This document shows positions 2 through 8,058 of a DNA stretch of 64,000 nt, piece after piece. The DNA comes from a virus, in IMG/VR virus record IMGVR_UViG_3300027833_000016; one strand, written 5' to 3'. The notes under the pieces are model-generated. The model was not told the DNA's origin and did no database searches. It was given only the letters and a program-made list of their open reading frames with translations. The first letter of the stretch is position 1. Each line of letters begins with the position of its first letter. The position numbers were made by a program, and so were the translations under genes.

Positions 2-1186
2 GAGAACAAGAACACTCACATGACTCACATCGAAGATAAGGTTATCTACGGTGGGGTTAAGGGCACACGCGAAGCAATCAATGCTCTACGCGAACTCCGT
101 GATGTGTTGGCAGGTGGTGGTAAAGCAAACCTATCTACTAAGTGGGATGGTGCCCCTGCTATCTTCGCAGGTACCGATCCTAGTGACGGTAAGTTCTTTG
201 TGGCAAAGAAGGGTATCTTCAATAAGAACCCACAGATCTATAAGACTCCTGCTGATTGTGATGAGTTCCTATCTGGTGACCTCGCAGTTAAGATGAAGGA
301 TGCGTTGAAGTATCTACCTGAACTGGGTATCCAAGGTGTCATCCAAGGTGATTTCTTATTCGGTGCAGGTGATGTTGAAACCAAAACAATAGAGGGTACG
401 AAGTATACAACCTTCCACCCCAACACGATTGTATATGCCATACCTTTCGATCAGTCTAAGATAGTACGAGACGCGAAAATCGGCATAGTGTGGCACACTA
501 CATATAAGGGTAAAGACTTTGAAAACATGAGTGCAACTTATGGTGTCGAAGTATCCAAACTTAAACGAAGTAAGAATGTCTGGAGTCAAGACGCAATGTT
601 GCGTTCTGTTGATGCTACCATGACACAAAAAGAAACGGAGCAAGTAAATGACCTATTATCAAAGATTGGTAAACTATTTAACCAAATTGCGGGATCGACT
701 CTTAGAGTTCTTGAATCAAACCCCACCCTTGCCGGAACCATTGAAACCTACGGTAACACCCTCGTCCGTAAAGGCACCTACATCCAAAACCCCAAAGCGC
801 ACACGCGCTCCCTCATCGCGTACATCCAAGGGAAGTACCAAAAAGAAATCGACAAGCGTAGCACCGAAAAGGGCAAAAGCGTCCAAATCGCAAAACTCGA
901 AGAAGTAATGAAGTTCTTCTCTCCGCAGAACCGAGCATCTTTAGAAAAGATGTTCGAAATGCAGAAGTTGATCGTTCTAGCAAAACTGAAACTTATAAAT
1001 AAACTAAACAGTTTAAAGAAAATTGACACATTCGTTAAGACCCGACAAGGTTTTAAAGTGACATCCGAAGAAGGATATGTGGCAATCGATAAACTTGGTG
1101 GTGATGCTGTGAAACTTGTTGATCGTATGGAGTTCTCATACAACAACTTTTCACCCGATATACTAAAGGGTTGGGAGAAATCTTAA
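2..1186 (+). CDS. Conserved T4-like phage protein (DUF6267-like) with ATP-dependent ligase-like motifs; probably 5'-truncated by the window edge
   Basis: Frame is open from base 2 (ENKNTHMTHIED...). KWDG, QGDF, EEGYV and VKLVDR motifs. Lies upstream of an HxGH nucleotidyltransferase as in marine T4-likes. Confidence 0.7.
   Translation, partial: ENKNTHMTHIEDKVIYGGVKGTREAINALRELRDVLAGGGKANLSTKWDGAPAIFAGTDPSDGKFFVAKKGIFNKNPQIYKTPADCDEFLSGDLAVKMKDALKYLPELGIQGVIQGDFLFGAGDVETKTIEGTKYTTFHPNTIVYAIPFDQSKIVRDAKIGIVWHTTYKGKDFENMSATYGVEVSKLKRSKNVWSQDAMLRSVDATMTQKETEQVNDLLSKIGKLFNQIAGSTLRVLESNPTLAGTIETYGNTLVRKGTYIQNPKAHTRSLIAYIQGKYQKEIDKRSTEKGKSVQIAKLEEVMKFFSPQNRASLEKMFEMQKLIVLAKLKLINKLNSLKKIDTFVKTRQGFKVTSEEGYVAIDKLGGDAVKLVDRMEFSYNNFSPDILKGWEKS
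994..1001 (+). promoter_or_regulatory. T4-type late promoter (TATAAATA), internal to the upstream CDS
   Basis: Exact TATAAATA about 220 nt upstream of the next gene. Confidence 0.45.
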
Positions 1187-1220
1187 CTCGCTAATGGGAA
1201 GAATCAAAGAGGAACCAAAA

Positions 1221-1613
1221 GTGGCAGATAAACCGCTTAGATTTAAAGAGTTTGTAGAGATCGAAGAATCTCCAGACGAAGCATTGAATATGACGCAACG
1301 TCTTGCGCGTGGTCGTACCTTCAAGAAGAACAAAGCAAAGATTGCTATGGGTCGCAAACGTGCGTCTCGTAAGATAGCATCTATGGATACCCTCAAGAAA
1401 CGTTCTCGCAAAGCGGCACGAACCGTACTCCTAAAGAAAATGACCAAAGACGTGCCCAAGGGTGAGTTGTCATTGTCTCGTAGACAAGATATAGAGAAGC
1501 GATTAGAGAAGAAGAAAGGGGTTATCGATAAGATGGCAAAGAAATTGTTGCCACAAGTTCGTAAGAAAGAGATGATGAAGAAGAAAGGACAAGGATCTAA
1601 TAATGCCAATTAA
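1221..1613 (+). CDS. Highly basic putative internal head/core protein
   Basis: GTG start after GAGGA (ORF track starts at 1194). LRFKEFVEIEE resembles a capsid-targeting sequence. K/R-rich body. Confidence 0.6.
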   Translation: MADKPLRFKEFVEIEESPDEALNMTQRLARGRTFKKNKAKIAMGRKRASRKIASMDTLKKRSRKAARTVLLKKMTKDVPKGELSLSRRQDIEKRLEKKKGVIDKMAKKLLPQVRKKEMMKKKGQGSNNAN

Positions 1614-3312
1614 GAATTTCTCTTCGTATTTGATCGAAGAGAACAGAGAAGTATACTTCACCTTTGGTCGTATGAATCCTCCTACTATCGGTCACGGTAA
1701 GGTGATGGATGTACTCGCGTCCAAGTCAGGTAAGTCTGACTATAAAGTATACCTGTCGCAATCAGTGAACCCTAAGAAGGATCCACTGACGTATGCAGAC
1801 AAGGTTAAACACACAAGAAAGATGTTTCCAAAACACGCACGTCAAGTTATACTAGACAAGGGTGTTAGGAGCGTGTTCGATATCGCAGTCAAACTATATG
1901 ACCAAGGTTACACTAAGGTCAACATGGTTGTGGGCGCAGACCGTATTCGTGAGTTCGAAGTACTGTTAGCAAAGTACAACGGAACTAAAGCACGTCATGG
2001 GTTCTATAAGTTTCAGAAGATCAGTATCATATCGGCAGGTCAAAGAGATCCCGATGCTACTGGTGTTGAAGGTATGTCTGCGTCTAAGCAACGAGACAAT
2101 GCCTCAAAGAATGACTACACCACGTTCTCCCAAGGTGTACCAACGTCTATGTCTGATGCAGATACACGGAAGTTGTTCAATGATGTTCGGAGTGGAATGG
2201 GTCTCAAGGAAGAGCATCAATTCTCAAGACACATACAGTTAGAGACAGTATCCGAGACGCGTGAAGCATACGTCAAAGGATCCCTGTTTGCTGTAGGTGA
2301 CGAAGTGGTAATCAAAGATACAGACGAGTTGGCAACTGTTGCAGTACTAGGTACCAACTATGTTATCATCGAATCAGACGGTAAGAAGATGCGCAAGTGG
2401 TTGGATGCCGTTGAGTTGATCGAGAAGAAACATCCCTGTAAGGGACTATCCGAAGACGATCCATGTTGGGACTCGCATAAGCAAGTCGGCATGAAGACTA
2501 AGAACGGAAAGCAGGTTCCTAACTGCGTACCCAAAGAAGATGCCGATGATAAGTTCGGTAAGAAGAAAGGTATGGGGTTTCGCGCACACGCTACTAAGAT
2601 CGAAGAAGATGTGTCACAGAAAGAACTCAATGACCTAGAGAAGTTTGCTGATCGTTTGTTAAATAAGTTTGATGTTGATATCGAATTCACACGTCACTTC
2701 GCTGATCGTATGAATGACAAGCGTAACAAACCTGCCATTACTGTCGCAGAGTTACAACGTTTGTTTAAGAAGATGGCAGACAACAAGGGTAAGAAGATTA
2801 AGAAGCACGGTAACAGTGAAGCAATCCTAAAGGATATGCAGTCTGATCTAAACCTACCTGTAGTGATTAACTGGAAGAACGGTGAGTTCGAAGTTGTTAA
2901 CAAAACAATAATGCGCAAGAAAGCATTCAAGTCACCTGATCCCGAACTCAAGTATGAAGGAGTTGAATTGGACGAGAATTGGTTTACTGATTGGGTTGCA
3001 GGGTTAAGTGCTAAGTCTGTACAGAAGTCTGACTATGCTAAAGCGGCAAAGTGGGTTGAGGCAGAGATCAAGAAGTCTAAGGGTAGACACGGAGCAGACT
3101 ACTACGCACAAGAACTTATCCGTAAGTCTGGTGCTAAGATGAACCGTAAGCAGATTGTGTCATTGGTTTCTACAACCGAAGCAGTTGATCATATGGCAAA
3201 GGCAGATAAGAAGATAGATAAAGAGGTCGAAGCAGATAAGAAGAAGCATGACCGTATCTTAGATCGTGCTAGACTTGCTCGTGCTAGGCAGAAGAACAGG
3301 ACAACCAAGTGA
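1603..3312 (+). CDS. Cytidylyl/adenylyltransferase-like (HxGH) protein with appended C-terminal modules
   Basis: TFGRMNPPTIGH and MSASK motifs. C-terminal modules include PCWDSHKQVG..VPNCVP and EFTRHFADRMND, separated by x-x-E sites. Confidence 0.8.
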   Translation: MPIKNFSSYLIEENREVYFTFGRMNPPTIGHGKVMDVLASKSGKSDYKVYLSQSVNPKKDPLTYADKVKHTRKMFPKHARQVILDKGVRSVFDIAVKLYDQGYTKVNMVVGADRIREFEVLLAKYNGTKARHGFYKFQKISIISAGQRDPDATGVEGMSASKQRDNASKNDYTTFSQGVPTSMSDADTRKLFNDVRSGMGLKEEHQFSRHIQLETVSETREAYVKGSLFAVGDEVVIKDTDELATVAVLGTNYVIIESDGKKMRKWLDAVELIEKKHPCKGLSEDDPCWDSHKQVGMKTKNGKQVPNCVPKEDADDKFGKKKGMGFRAHATKIEEDVSQKELNDLEKFADRLLNKFDVDIEFTRHFADRMNDKRNKPAITVAELQRLFKKMADNKGKKIKKHGNSEAILKDMQSDLNLPVVINWKNGEFEVVNKTIMRKKAFKSPDPELKYEGVELDENWFTDWVAGLSAKSVQKSDYAKAAKWVEAEIKKSKGRHGADYYAQELIRKSGAKMNRKQIVSLVSTTEAVDHMAKADKKIDKEVEADKKKHDRILDRARLARARQKNRTTK

Positions 3313-3581
3313 TTAATTTTAAGAAATACCTTGACGAAGGTCGCTATAAGAGTTATAATACTCTTGACATTGGCGAGTCTCCTGATGGTATCTCTGGTAA
3401 GGCAAAGAAATCAGGCATATCCACAGACATACTAAATAAGGTATATGACAGAGGTTTCGCGGCATGGAAGACATCCCACCGTGCAGGAACCACACCCCAA
3501 CAATGGGCAATGGCACGAGTTAATAGTTTCATTGCTAAAAAGAAATCTGGTAAGTTAAACCACGACAAGGATCTAGCATAA
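3309..3581 (+). CDS. Small conserved viral protein (DUF5824-like)
   Basis: VYDRGFAAW..HR...QQWAMARVNSF motif. N-terminus MINFKKYLDE. Confidence 0.65.
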   Translation: MINFKKYLDEGRYKSYNTLDIGESPDGISGKAKKSGISTDILNKVYDRGFAAWKTSHRAGTTPQQWAMARVNSFIAKKKSGKLNHDKDLA

Positions 3582-3582
3582 C

Positions 3583-4866
3583 ATGAGAACGTTTAAAGAT
3601 ATACGAGAGAGTGCCAAAGGCATGGTAGGTGGTTTCTCAGTAGAGATACCCAAGCAAACTATCTCTGGTAAGACTATAGGTGGCGGTAAGAATGGTATCT
3701 TTGTTAAGGCAAAGACTGCTCGTCAAGCAATCAGCATGGCGGCAAAACGTCTGGGTGTTGATTTCAAGATGCTTAAAGTCGGTAAGGTAATTAAAGAGTC
3801 TGTCGAGTCATTAGACGAAGCATATCAGCAATTCTTGGATAAGTCGCCTAGTAACTGGGGTGAGGAAAAGGTAGTCGCTTACGGAACCAAGAAAGGTTAC
3901 AAAGTGATCGGTGTATGTGGTCATGGTAGAATAGACGGTATTGTATTATTCGGTCTTGATGCGAGTGATAAATCATATGTTGGTAAGGAAGCAAAGGTTA
4001 AGACTGGTCAAACAGTATTCCGTTATGCTACTCGCAATAGTATGGCAGGTGACATCTTTCCTTTAGTTAAGATTGATGTTAAGAAAGGTCTTCTATATAA
4101 CCTATCTCAGAAGTCAAGTGAAGGTGAGATCGAACACGCAGAGTTTGAGACCAAAAGTGTTAAGTTGCGCTATCTGCGTCTTGCCGCGACTGCGAACCTC
4201 CGTGATATTACTGGGTTCGATCCCGGATTCGGTTCAATGAAAGAGTCTGTTGACCTTGAAGAAGCAATGGGCAAGTTAAATGCCAAAGGCGAGATCGAGA
4301 TGACTGCAAAGAACTTTGCCAAGGTTCATAAAGATTACAAGACTAAGATGAAAGGCGTTCCATATGCTATGCAGATCGATCCTAAAACTGGCGGTTCTGC
4401 ATTATACCCAGTTAAGATCATCAAAGAGTCTGTTGAAGAAGGTAAGAAACCAGTATCACAGATGACTCCTGCCGAGAAGAAAGCAGATGCAAAGAGACGT
4501 AAAGAATACAATGCGCATCAAAAGTCAAAGCGTGAGTCACTTGACCTCGAAGAAGGGAAGATGAAAGACTTCCACGATATGGTAAAGAGAGGCATGACTG
4601 CCGCACAGATTGCTAAGAAGATTGGCATGAAAGAGAAAGATGTTGCGGAGTTTATGAAAGGTATGAATGAAGCAAAGGATAATTCTTACACTGTTGTTCA
4701 TGCTAAGAAAGGTAAGGTAGTAGTTACTGCACCCACTTCATATGATGCGGCACAGAAAGCGGCAAAGCAATGGAAACTAAAGTCTACTGGCGGTGTTGAT
4801 GCTTATCTTATGAAAGAGTCTGTTGACCTTGATCTGACGCGACTGAAATTACTACTGGGTAGATAG
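3583..4866 (+). CDS. Modular putative internal head polyprotein
   Basis: N-terminus MRTFKDIRE. Recurrent linkers KESV(D/E)(L)EE and ESLDLEE. Confidence 0.6.
   Translation: MRTFKDIRESAKGMVGGFSVEIPKQTISGKTIGGGKNGIFVKAKTARQAISMAAKRLGVDFKMLKVGKVIKESVESLDEAYQQFLDKSPSNWGEEKVVAYGTKKGYKVIGVCGHGRIDGIVLFGLDASDKSYVGKEAKVKTGQTVFRYATRNSMAGDIFPLVKIDVKKGLLYNLSQKSSEGEIEHAEFETKSVKLRYLRLAATANLRDITGFDPGFGSMKESVDLEEAMGKLNAKGEIEMTAKNFAKVHKDYKTKMKGVPYAMQIDPKTGGSALYPVKIIKESVEEGKKPVSQMTPAEKKADAKRRKEYNAHQKSKRESLDLEEGKMKDFHDMVKRGMTAAQIAKKIGMKEKDVAEFMKGMNEAKDNSYTVVHAKKGKVVVTAPTSYDAAQKAAKQWKLKSTGGVDAYLMKESVDLDLTRLKLLLGR
4237..4832 (+). repeat. Exact 23-bp direct repeat ATGAAAGAGTCTGTTGACCTTGA (4237-4259, 4810-4832); partial copies at 3793, 4423 and 4534
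   Basis: Read directly from the sequence. Confidence 0.85.
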
Positions 4867-4868
4867 AC

Positions 4869-5219
4869 ATGAAGAGTTTCAAAGATGTGGAACGCATTGA
4901 CGCACACTGTGAATGCACAGACTTGTATGAGGACTTGATGATTACTGAGTCTGAGTATCAGGGTAAGAAGGTTAAGTTGAACGACCCTATCCGTACATCC
5001 GAGAACCCAAACAAGAAGTTCAAGGTGTATGTGAAGAACGATCAAGGTAACGTAGTTGTTGTACGTTTCGGAGATCCTAAGATGTCGATCAAACGAGATG
5101 ATCCTGCAAGACGGAAGTCTTTCAGAGCAAGGCACGATTGTGCGAATCCGGGCCCAAAACATAAGGCACGGTATTGGAGTTGCTATCAATGGCGCGGAAG
5201 TGCCAAGGTAGACAGTTAA
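4869..5219 (+). CDS. DUF6321-like protein
   Basis: KKFKVYV...RFGD...RRKSFRARHDC...ARYWSC motif. Confidence 0.7.
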   Translation: MKSFKDVERIDAHCECTDLYEDLMITESEYQGKKVKLNDPIRTSENPNKKFKVYVKNDQGNVVVVRFGDPKMSIKRDDPARRKSFRARHDCANPGPKHKARYWSCYQWRGSAKVDS

Positions 5220-6470: not shown

Positions 6471-6500
6471 AAAAGAACCTCACTTAGGTGGGGTTTTTTT
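6471..6500. terminator. Rho-independent terminator, probably bidirectional
   Basis: AAAAGAACCTCAC-TTAG-GTGGGGTTTTTTT between convergent genes. Confidence 0.8.
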
Positions 6501-8058
6501 ATGCCCCCAGTTTGTTGATACGGTATTGGGCGAGTTTCTTATCCCATATGTCTTGATCAGATGATGAGAAGTGTTGCGCTCCGTTTCTTTCTCCATATAC
6601 GATATCAGGATCCTTTCCAAGTGAAGTGACCCAAGGCAGTGACCAGATACTTGGCATTCCATGATACGATTCATCGTACCACTCTCTCTGTAATTTTCTC
6701 ATATCACCTTCGGTATATCCATATTGGGGGTGAACCCATTGGTTCTCTCCGAATACGGTCTGCCATCCATAGGTACCCTGAAGAGATATCTTAGAGGACA
6801 CGTCCACCCTATTCTCATGCGATGGTTTATCTATGTACAATGGATACATATTAACGTGTCTATGACTGAAATTCTCTCCCAACCACTTCTGAGTGTTTCT
6901 CATAGAATCTATAGTCTCGTGTGGCAGACCTAAGATAAAGGACATATTAACCTCGAAGTGTTTGTCAAGCATAAGCAACCCTTCCTTTACCCTATCAGAT
7001 GCCATGCCCTTCCCAATTGCCTTTGCGCTTTGATGATTAAGAGATTCAACTCCATACCAGTGTCCCATAATCCCCATTTCTAAACAAGCATCTATTTCTC
7101 TTTGTCCTCTACTAATGAGTAGATCTGATCTCATGTATCCGTGGAACCTTGCCTTGAATGGTAAAGATTTTACAACCGCACCAAACTTCTCTATTTTCTC
7201 TGTCCGATCATTAATGGTTTCGTCTGTAAGAAGATAGTTTGTAACCCCCCACCTGTCATAGTTTTCTTGCATCTCAGACTCAAAGTCATCAACATCTCGT
7301 GTCCAGTCTCCCTTGACTCCTAGTGGATAGTATTCGCAAAACGCACAATGGAACCTACACCCTCGTGATAGTTCTATTGTCAAAGTCTCATTAGATTCGA
7401 TGTAGTCTCGTTCTTCATATGATACCTTCACAGTACGCTTGGGTTCTGCGGGATAATCATATCGACAATCGATCAACTTATACTGCTTAGAGTATAATCC
7501 ATGTCCATGCGTGTTTCTGGTCATCTTTTTAAACTTCAGATCCGATCCAGAGTTAGTTAGATATTTGCAGAGGGCATCCATACCATGCTCACCTCTACCT
7601 ATCATATGGTAGTCTGCGTCTGTACCAGAGATTGAATTGAACATCATACCACCTGCCACGGTAGTCACCCAAGGGTAGTTAGTTTTAATATAGTGGTTTA
7701 AGTTTATCTGTTTACCGTATCTCCCATTGAACGGCATACTGAAACCAACGAAGACTGTATCCTTGTGGATACGACTATCGACCAGTGCCTTTAGATCTTG
7801 CCAAGAGAAAGCATTCCAGAAGTCTATGACCTCCACATCCCATTCACCCGAATCACGCAGATGAGATGCTATTTTATGAGAACCTGCACTACGAGAGGAC
7901 TGTATCTTCCACTGCTTTGCAGGAAGACCAAACTGAGTGACCGCGCCATGTTTATCGCTTGCGTAAAGTTCCCAATTAGACTCAAGACCCTTTTCTGGTT
8001 CTAGGTTATCAATAGGATATTCTACGTTGAATATAGAAAATATTATACCATGATGCAT
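6499..8058 (-). CDS. B12-binding-domain radical SAM protein
   Basis: ELSRGCRFHCAFC (CxxxCxxC), upstream AGG..GRGE segment, GVESLN and FILGLPHET. Confidence 0.85.
   Translation of the reverse strand: MHHGIIFSIFNVEYPIDNLEPEKGLESNWELYASDKHGAVTQFGLPAKQWKIQSSRSAGSHKIASHLRDSGEWDVEVIDFWNAFSWQDLKALVDSRIHKDTVFVGFSMPFNGRYGKQINLNHYIKTNYPWVTTVAGGMMFNSISGTDADYHMIGRGEHGMDALCKYLTNSGSDLKFKKMTRNTHGHGLYSKQYKLIDCRYDYPAEPKRTVKVSYEERDYIESNETLTIELSRGCRFHCAFCEYYPLGVKGDWTRDVDDFESEMQENYDRWGVTNYLLTDETINDRTEKIEKFGAVVKSLPFKARFHGYMRSDLLISRGQREIDACLEMGIMGHWYGVESLNHQSAKAIGKGMASDRVKEGLLMLDKHFEVNMSFILGLPHETIDSMRNTQKWLGENFSHRHVNMYPLYIDKPSHENRVDVSSKISLQGTYGWQTVFGENQWVHPQYGYTEGDMRKLQREWYDESYHGMPSIWSLPWVTSLGKDPDIVYGERNGAQHFSSSDQDIWDKKLAQYRINKLGA

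Follow-up and report, generated by a model that had tools for sequence, protein, structure and literature searches.

The internal proteins of phage T4 are the classic example of proteins that are packed in the head and injected to disarm host defences, and prohead proteases of the gp21 type cut after the glutamate of hydrophobic-x-Glu motifs. Each of the three T4 internal proteins has since been shown to block GmrSD-type restriction enzymes (PMC12373910), and in the capsid-targeting CTS of T4, MKTYQEFIAE, residues 4 and 7 are involved in targeting and residues 8 and 10 in processing (PMC8442874, PMC9026906). Further features of the T-even internal proteins and of Alt used below for comparison are taken from PMC8442874, PMC9026906, PMC3012670 and PMC12373910. 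Regarding the shuffling of T-even internal proteins, one account at least (PMC2839356, citing Repoila 1994) attributes it to intergenic promoter and stem-loop elements, and PeSL-mediated modular shuffling has been described in T4-type phages (Arbiol et al. 2010, PMC2839356; Comeau et al. 2014, PMC4122927). Also described are the polyvalent proteins of phages and conjugative elements (Iyer et al. 2017, PMC5512222) and the propeptides of giant phages; in one of these, SPN3US, gp53 and gp54 share an N-terminus, MANFVKSKLARESVE, which contains RESVE with two candidate sites (PMC5694885) and resembles the [KR]-E-S-V-E of the linkers reported here.

The window analysed here, a stretch of 64,000 nucleotides, comes from an uncultured marine T4-like phage. 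It contains the ORF of the original prediction, which is made up of six basic modules (pI 9.2-10.6 for all six) and five linkers with acidic cores, with the following features:

3583..4866, + strand: polyprotein ORF, 427 aa, pI 9.7
3583..3609, + strand: leader MRTFKDIRE (aa 1-9), T4 capsid-targeting-like, ending in I-R-E
3610..3792, + strand: module M1 (aa 10-70), basic, retained with high conservation across many architectures; secondary structure predicted as strand-strand-helix-strand
3793..3819, + strand: linker 1, KESVESLDE (aa 71-79)
3820..4239, + strand: module M2 (aa 80-219), autonomous alpha/beta domain (predicted structure), with no Pfam, PHROG or PDB relative
4240..4263, + strand: linker 2, KESVDLEE (aa 220-227), inside the exact 23-nt repeat copy 4237-4259
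4264..4422, + strand: module M3 (aa 228-280), basic, also found alone as a 58-aa protein
4423..4440, + strand: linker 3, KESVEE (aa 281-286)
4441..4530, + strand: module M4 (aa 287-316), very basic predicted helix
4531..4554, + strand: linker 4, RESLDLEE (aa 317-324), partner of linker 2 in a crossover in locus L004
4555..4674, + strand: module M5 (aa 325-364), HTH-like, ending in M-N-E↓A (↓, candidate cut)
4675..4812, + strand: module M6 (aa 365-410), basic, also found alone in proteins of 52-87 aa
4813..4833, + strand: linker 5, KESVDLD (aa 411-417), final Glu replaced by Asp, overlapping the second exact 23-nt copy 4810-4832
4834..4863, + strand: C-terminal tail LTRLKLLLGR (aa 418-427), conserved in orthologues whichever module precedes it (26 proteins)

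The five linkers read exactly as claimed from the first inspection of the sequence and follow the consensus [M/I]-K-E-S-V-[E/D]-L-[D/E]-E. They also double, as proposed, as DNA repeats: ATGAAAGAGTCTGTTGACCTTGA is exact at 4237-4259 and 4810-4832, with copies of 70-74% at 4420 and 4528, and AAAGAGTCTGT(C/T)GA is found at 3793 and 4423. Across all six frames of the window, [KR]ES[VL] followed by acidic residues is encoded by this ORF alone, and among 255 homologues the linker motif is about 11 times commoner than composition predicts. Moreover, codon choice in the linkers is more uniform than their amino acid sequence demands, with AAA for 94% of Lys (44% in the background), TCT for 85% of Ser (36%) and GAG for 68% of Glu (38%), a uniformity that shared descent rather than selection could explain, as the copies of the linker are not independent of one another. 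The linker joints sit within the ORF, and none of them overlaps a promoter or terminator consensus.

That the linkers act as recombination points, as was first suggested, is strongly supported. The best-matching stretches of 508 homologues begin or end at aa 68-80, 218-229, 281-289, 313-327, 358-370 and 409-417, and each module also exists by itself (52-150 aa) and recurs in differently ordered proteins, the longest of 1704 aa, architectures that exclude an invariant module content. Of 51 distinct blastn endpoints in syntenic loci, 45 fall within 12 nt of linker zones representing 21% of the gene (p ~1e-24). Comparison of orthologous loci, which the original prediction had called for, revealed gain and loss of modules at the linkers, together with replacement and permutation with joints inside them. 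In L004, whose flanks are 99.3% and 98.1% identical to the window locus, a crossover between linkers 2 and 4 has led to the loss of M3 and M4, M6 is replaced, and linker 1 carries a 63-nt insert encoding a 21-aa Cys-rich stretch between KESV and LDE, both linker halves being kept. Other loci (L011, L014, L025, L028 and L032) contain modules in permuted order with joints overlapping a linker. As the joints are translated within the ORF, each exchange must preserve the reading frame, and does so.

The predicted structures exclude a single-domain fold: M2 modelled alone reaches a pLDDT of 89 and is predicted to fold by itself, and the AlphaFold model of the whole chain is poor (pLDDT 45, pTM 0.23) and uninformative on linker conformation or exposure. 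M2 also exists as stand-alone proteins of ~130 aa bearing a leader. Searches with M2 and 19 stand-alone homologues against Pfam, PHROG and PDB-sequence profiles gave no match, Foldseek found none in the PDB with E below 0.7, the best Z of a wide structural search was only 3.8 and the ESM Atlas gave weak leads only. At the fold level, BFVD returned uncharacterised proteins of Vibrio phage nt-1, Klebsiella phage KP15 and RB43, and a profile search of these three genomes gave no sequence match; a known fold can neither be claimed nor excluded for M2 from these models. Regarding the HTH-like module, weak matches cover aa 331-373 (PHROG E 2e-3 to 8e-3; Pfam IF2_N E 0.04), and the motif V.A.T...A...AAK noticed in two modules corresponds to a weak profile alignment of M1 with M6 (hhalign probability 60%, E 8.8e-5, 21 columns). 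Apart from the weak HTH matches, no Pfam domain reaches threshold in the polyprotein, none of the conflict domains of polyvalent proteins (ArdC-N, methylase, SNF2 helicase, MuF, zincin-like peptidase, others) was found in it, and no module was found to be homologous to a known internal protein. The injected anti-defence effectors that had been envisaged find no evidence here, five of the six modules having no recognisable family or fold and the sixth being HTH-like.

Six contigs, the longest of 149 kb, carry a protein identical to the product of 3583..4866 (P0001). In the window, its gene belongs to a putative late operon, alongside other leader-bearing genes:

994..1001, + strand: T4-type late-promoter motif TATAAATA, predicted from the motif, ahead of the operon 1194..5219, whose genes are tightly packed and include that of the polyprotein
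1194..1613, + strand: very basic protein of 139 aa, pI 10.8, with an internal leader-like stretch, RFKEFVEIEE
1603..3312, + strand: cytidylyltransferase-fusion protein with a leader-like N-terminus, MPIKNFSSYLIEE
3309..3581, + strand: DUF5824 protein with a leader-like N-terminus, MINFKKYLDE
4869..5219, + strand: DUF5754-like protein with a leader-like N-terminus, MKSFKDVE (in relatives, MKKFKQYIAE)

The TATAAATA motif has 13 copies in the window for 4.1 expected, further copies being located ahead of baseplate genes (47043, 55514 and 59136). Leader-type N-termini are present on four consecutive genes of the window and on 4-8 such genes in relatives. A sigma70-like match at 3331-3359 falls within the stretch that encodes the DUF5824 leader (YLDE), probably by coincidence. 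The window contains no head genes, the polyprotein gene standing here without adjoining ones. The whole polyprotein had no match by tblastn in 50,697 deposited phage genomes, and the sole match of 12 kb by megablast was of 236 nt, to Phage C48C1.

By sequence resemblance, MRTFKDIRE follows the T4 CTS pattern (~10 aa, aromatic at position 4, hydrophobic at position 7). Within the family, N-termini read MK[TSQK]F[KSQ][ED][LI]RE, some being MKKFKSFIAE↓AYQQF, with MKTYKQFIA and MKTFKEFLEE as further variants. A strict leader starts only ~43% of the multi-linker homologues with distinct N-termini; among the others, some are fragments and one group starts with MFKKPEDISPLP. Leader and linker are equivalent ahead of modules: every module family is directly preceded by hydrophobic-x-E from one or the other, the L-x-E of the 10-aa leader of stand-alone M2 proteins aligns with the linker's SLDE, and the divergent linkers KEEVALDE and NESVEQVDE still place hydrophobic-x-E directly ahead of the module. 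In relatives, a 65-aa protein starting with MKTFKHLRE or MKKFRDLRE is encoded between a gp67-like gene and the protease; its body has no significant similarity to that of M6, the match being confined to the leader. The likeness to the T4 CTS and the leader shared with this neighbour of gp67 and gp21 in relatives both support the capsid-targeting leader of the original prediction, and suggest that the polyprotein may be targeted to the capsid.

All six [LI]-x-E motifs of the polyprotein are located in the leader or the linkers. The leader I-R-E↓S and the linkers L-D-E↓A, L-E-E↓A and L-E-E↓G fit the gp21 motif followed by a small residue; a final Asp, as in linker 5, blocks processing in the T4 CTS (PMC9026906). 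Three relatives carrying the orthologous locus encode a Peptidase_S77 (E ~1e-40), and at the position of FLTE↓A in T4 gp23 their capsid protein retains FLTE↓T or FLAE↓S; for the window phage, this is an extrapolation. Inside module families, hydrophobic-x-E is not depleted (M2: 45 observed vs 36 expected), so the motif alone cannot define cleavage. The proposed release of the modules by a gp21-type protease agrees with the motif fit, the protease of relatives and their conserved capsid-protein site.

We favour, with some confidence, the view that this gene encodes a late-expressed head-cargo polyprotein, targeted by its leader and cut by a protease at leader and linkers, whose modules are shuffled at the linker DNA. 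MRTFKDIRE would direct the full-length chain to the scaffolding core of the prohead, and a gp21-type protease would cut at the leader and at every acidic linker, with two candidate sites per linker ([M/I]-K-E↓S and L-[D/E]-E↓[A/G]). This would free six small proteins, all of them basic (pI 9.2-10.6), which would remain with the DNA and, by analogy with T4 internal proteins, presumably be ejected into the host. As DNA, the linker (core AAAGAGTCTGT, then GA-rich codons) forms a short homology patch at which phage recombination deletes, replaces, inserts or reorders modules in frame, from a pool of dozens of families common to related marine T4-like phages. We would give even chances to a dual use of the linker, i.e., as an in-frame recombination joint in DNA and, in protein, as the cutting site that yields separate injected proteins, an integron-like arrangement in a single reading frame. 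A single leader, promoter and protease could then serve an open-ended and fast-reshuffled effector set. Literature text searches (linker peptides; phage polyproteins and prohead proteases) retrieved no description of this arrangement.

The chain could also function uncleaved, as a beads-on-a-string multidomain protein (basic, nucleic-acid-binding or regulatory, packaged or not) whose linkers are spacers kept as in-frame recombination joints. One module is indeed HTH-like, homologues are labelled predicted transcriptional regulators by their sources, conservation of the linkers extends to their codons and the modules are not depleted in hydrophobic-x-E, all of which would suit such a protein. 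However, it leaves unexplained why stand-alone modules bear a leader like the T4 CTS, with an L-x-E that aligns to the linker's, why hydrophobic-x-E persists before modules in divergent linkers, and why the same leader is found on a protein encoded beside the prohead protease; we consider this explanation rather unlikely. Resemblance of the linker to the second half of an extended leader (MKQFSDLRESLVESVELDE↓A) and the existence of stand-alone leader-bearing versions would suggest instead gene-fusion fossils, i.e., remnants of the leaders of once-separate internal-protein genes, in which case the N-terminal leader alone would still be processed and the cargo be packaged as one chain. Fossils should decay, whereas the linkers are strongly conserved over hundreds of proteins and many module families, and a module can insert between linker halves with both halves retained, which makes this origin improbable.

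Very little credit can be given to an artefact, either of metagenome assemblies that joined strains at short repeats or of internal translation starts at ATGAAAGAG that make the modules separately. While repeats are common to different strains, the stretch shared here, of only 11-23 nt, is below the k-mer length at which assemblies usually end, and identical architectures occur on many independently assembled contigs from several sources (6 for P0001, 52 for P0038 and 58 for P0098). As for internal starts, Met precedes the linker Lys in 28% of linkers, but most linkers have Ile, Val, Lys or Thr at this position, and no Shine-Dalgarno-like sequence lies ahead of the ATGs at 4237 and 4810.

If marine T4-like phages, which are abundant, do deliver shuffled polyprotein cargo, cargo genes and mature boundaries would be predictable from the leader/linker grammar alone, and nature would provide here a clear viral example of exon-like shuffling in frame. 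The small module families, dozens in number and without a known fold, would then be candidate early-acting effectors in ocean phage-host conflicts. Moreover, the stereotyped leader and linker could serve for multi-protein packaging in T4-type capsids.

Compared with known systems, the locus shares with the propeptides of giant-phage ejection proteins (phiKZ, 201phi2-1, SPN3US) cleavage after Glu, here proposed and in their case at small-x-Glu, and several neighbouring sites, in their case within one propeptide and here candidates; these propeptides, however, belong to another phage group, have a P3 preference for A/S/G and are removed from single proteins instead of joining shuffled cargos. 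As in polyvalent proteins, many unrelated domains are found per chain in variable combinations, predicted to travel with DNA into the host and proposed to be processed by a peptidase. Polyvalent proteins are however large, with recognisable enzymatic or anti-restriction domains and often their own peptidase, whereas here modules of 30-140 aa without known domain are linked by one stereotyped joint motif and a separate prohead protease is proposed. Like PeSLs, the linkers are short conserved sequences on either side of variable cassettes, in a plastic region of T4-like genomes; in both cases recombination deletes, inserts and replaces these cassettes, and the breakpoints coincide with the conserved element. 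PeSLs are intergenic elements of ~100 bp with a sigma70-like promoter and a stem-loop terminator, whereas the joints here are of 11-23 nt, inside the ORF and translated. Finally, the T4/T-even internal proteins (IPI, IPII, IPIII, >30 variants) and Alt resemble the present system by a ~10-aa leader near MKTYQEFIAE with a hydrophobic-x-Glu end, basic products (here the predicted mature modules), a T4-like lineage with a gp21-type protease, and a hypervariable locus with several leader-bearing genes where unrelated cargos stand behind a shared leader. T-even internal proteins are encoded by separate genes, each with its own leader and cut once, whereas the cargos are here fused in frame behind one leader and the repeated joint is a coding sequence resembling the processing half of that leader. 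We read this locus as the T4 internal-protein system in another form, an in-frame cassette array in place of separate genes.

The open reading frame at 3583..4866 (+) encodes 427 aa organized as modules (M1 to M6) joined by five acidic linkers (L1 to L5) that are also DNA repeats; the original prediction had described the linkers and repeats correctly.

Layout of the polyprotein encoded at 3583..4866 (+), in residues
1-9: leader, MRTFKDIRE
10-70: M1, basic
71-79: linker L1, KESVESLDE
80-219: M2, alpha/beta domain
220-227: linker L2, KESVDLEE
228-280: M3, basic
281-286: linker L3, KESVEE
287-316: M4, very basic helix
317-324: linker L4, RESLDLEE
325-364: M5, HTH-like, with C-terminal M-N-E|A
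365-410: M6, basic
411-417: linker L5, KESVDLD
418-427: tail, LTRLKLLLGR

Each of the six modules is basic (pI 9.2-10.6, net charge +3 to +10) and the linker cores are acidic (net -2 to -3). The linker consensus, drawn from 156 distinct contexts, is [M/I]-K-E-S-V-[E/D]-[L/E]-[D/E]-E-[A/G]; this motif is ~11 times commoner than composition predicts and, in a six-frame translation of the 64 kb, is confined to the polyprotein ORF. Divergent proteins have KEEVALDE, KEDVELDE or NESVEQVDE as linkers, the part kept everywhere being the hydrophobic-x-Glu immediately before the next module. At the DNA level, a 23-mer occurs exactly at 4237 and 4810 and as 70-74% copies at 4420 and 4528, and AAAGAGTCTGT(C/T)GA is found at 3793 and 4423. 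The linker core AAAGAGTCTGT (3793-3803, 4240-4250, 4423-4433 and 4813-4823) includes GAGTC, a GANTC site of the type that CcrM-type methylases and HinfI-type enzymes recognise.

Recombination at the linkers, which had also been proposed, is borne out by clustered blastn endpoints, by a crossover in L004 (a contig of a related phage) and by permuted module orders elsewhere, and module shuffling by this route is thus shown. Indeed, 45 of 51 distinct blastn endpoints lie <=12 nt from linker zones, which represent 21% of the ORF length (p about 1e-24). L004 is the clearest case: it matches the window at 99.3% and 98.1% identity in the flanks and at only 89% in M2; M3 and M4 are missing through a crossover in GACCT(T/C)GAAGAAG, common to linkers 2 and 4, another module stands in place of M6, and the C-terminal tail is kept. 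Its linker 1 contains a 63-nt insert (L004:908-970, aligned to window 3805-3809) encoding a 21-aa Cys-rich mini-module, GGCECEDCKCDPCTCSTCPAP, located exactly between KESV and LDE, from which it follows that the linker halves act as separate cassette borders. In further contigs, the same modules are permuted, and the joints overlap the linker. The linkers vary less in codon choice than their amino-acid sequence would allow (Lys AAA 94% vs 44%, Ser TCT 85% vs 36%), which fits frequent recombination or gene conversion; as linker copies are non-independent, this uniformity is not proof of selection on DNA. That the mosaic reflects assembly errors or internal translation starts is highly improbable; several sources provide the same architectures, on as many as 58 contigs, which argues against misassembly.

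An exhaustive phmmer search retrieved 508 relatives, whose best-matching stretches start and stop at linkers, as do BLAST endpoints. Every module is also found by itself as a small protein (M2 ~130 aa, M3 58 aa, M6 52-87 aa) and occupies different positions in proteins as long as 1704 aa, and segment clustering revealed many orders, M1-M2-M3-M4-M5-M6 here vs M3-M4-M5-M2 or M6-M3-x-M2 elsewhere. Profile comparison shows a weak relationship between M1 and M6. Modeled alone, M2 has a confident predicted fold (pLDDT 89, pTM 0.84); the full chain reaches a pTM of 0.23 and hence gives no sign of a single global fold. No relative of M2 was found in Pfam, PHROG or the PDB, and its fold-level neighbours are only uncharacterised proteins of the T4-like phages Vibrio nt-1, Klebsiella KP15 and RB43 (model m5e77ffcd1a67, window 3820-4239; Foldseek probability 1.0, TM 0.53-0.69), cultured phages in whose genomes no sequence match was found.

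Across the family, the N-termini define a tight leader, MK[TSQK]F[KSQ][ED][LI]RE, with the versions MKKFKSFIAE, MKKFKQYIAE and MKTYKQFIA approaching the T4 capsid-targeting sequence (CTS), MKTYQEFIAE, in which positions 4 and 7 are needed for targeting and 8 and 10 for processing, and which causes any protein fused to it to be packed and cut (PMC8442874, PMC9026906). The strict leader starts only ~43% of multi-linker homologues. Stand-alone M2 proteins have a 10-aa leader whose L-x-E aligns with SLDE of linker 1, the linker thus resembling the processing half of the leader, and M2 begins AYQQFLDK straight after Glu behind leader and linker alike.

The T4 prohead protease gp21 cleaves on the C-terminal side of Glu, for example in ITE, LTE and LIE (PMC5694885, PMC9026906). 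In the polyprotein, 6/6 [LI]-x-E motifs lie in the leader or linkers; hydrophobic-x-E is not depleted inside modules. Three large relatives with an orthologous locus encode a Peptidase_S77 protease, and their capsid protein has FLTE|T or FLAE|S aligned to the cleavage site FLTE|A of T4 gp23. In the slot of the T4 core protein gp68, with the gp67-like gene on one side and the protease on the other, these relatives encode a protein of 65 aa whose N-terminus reads MKTFKHLRE or MKKFRDLRE. This protein (L055:17481-17678 (-) and L051:1254-1451 (+) in two related contigs) has the same leader as the polyprotein and no PHROG match.

From this comparison, in which the protease evidence comes from relatives, we infer that targeting and cleavage of the polyprotein are well motivated and fairly probable. 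On this best reading, the prohead protease would cut a polyprotein of head cargo into mature pieces that, as with T4 internal proteins, are small and basic. An uncleaved multidomain protein, with linkers as mere spacers and recombination joints, is a less likely but serious alternative, while it is rather unlikely that the linkers are fossil leaders left by gene fusion, with the N-terminus alone processed. If the polyprotein is cleaved, one end may escape: Asp at the final position blocks processing in T4 (PMC9026906) and L5 ends in Asp, so the tail may stay attached. The tail (window 4834-4863), preceded by ES-x-DLD with Asp replacing Glu, is retained as LDL(A/T)RLKLLLGR in 26 orthologues irrespective of the preceding module, and might serve as an uncleaved anchor or as a second targeting element, by analogy with the T4 Alt C-terminal propeptide. 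An anti-defence role might be envisaged solely by analogy with T4 IPI-III (PMC12373910); DNA-binding roles would equally fit the HTH-like M5 and the basic modules.

The window derives from an uncultured T4-like myovirus, with baseplate hub and wedge genes at 47-64 kb; its gp6-like wedge protein is closest to that of Phage C48C1 (38% identity), followed by Methylophilales phage Melnitz, Pelagibacter phage HTVC008M and cyanomyoviruses, and some homologues originate from Tara samples. The polyprotein ORF belongs to a tightly packed gene run (starts at 1194, 1603, 3309, 3583 and 4869) preceded at 994 by a T4-type late-promoter motif, of which the window has 13 copies (4.1 expected), including further ones 5' of baseplate genes. 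Within the DUF5824 gene, 224 nt 5' of the polyprotein start, the stretch 3331-3359 comes close to a sigma70-type promoter consensus (TTGACG, 17 nt, TATAAT), probably by coincidence; its -35 hexamer corresponds to YLDE leader-motif codons and its -10 reads TATGAT in relatives.

In 48 IMG/VR contigs, the locus is syntenic (cytidylyltransferase fusion, DUF5824, polyprotein, DUF5754). Several leader-bearing genes follow one another: window 2-5219 contains six consecutive + strand genes with apparent CTS-like leaders. Among them are a ligase-like ORF1 (starting just beyond the window edge; its L016 homologue, in a related contig, starts MTMNFKEFITE) and genes for a strongly basic protein of 139 aa (pI 10.8), a cytidylyltransferase fusion of 569 aa, and DUF5824 and DUF5754-like proteins. 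This region looks like an entire head-cargo locus, enzymes included. Just 3' of it, a radical-SAM-like gene at 6499-8058 (-) breaks the + strand late gene run; the related contigs L008, L016 and L025 instead have, a few kb downstream, a small gene starting MKTYEEF.

Our literature search found no paper on this polyprotein arrangement. The closest system is that of the T-even internal proteins, with which it has in common the leader, the protease rule, basic cargo and a hypervariable locus. However, T-even cargos are separate genes shuffled via intergenic promoter and stem-loop elements (PMC2839356, PMC3012670), whereas the polyprotein connects its cargos by in-frame fusion, through a joint that is itself coding sequence. 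Polyvalent proteins (PMC5512222) likewise embody the idea of a single injected chain with many activities, but the polyprotein lacks their hallmark domains. Finally, the tandem-site propeptide of SPN3US, MANFVKSKLARESVE, is analogous to the linker (PMC5694885).
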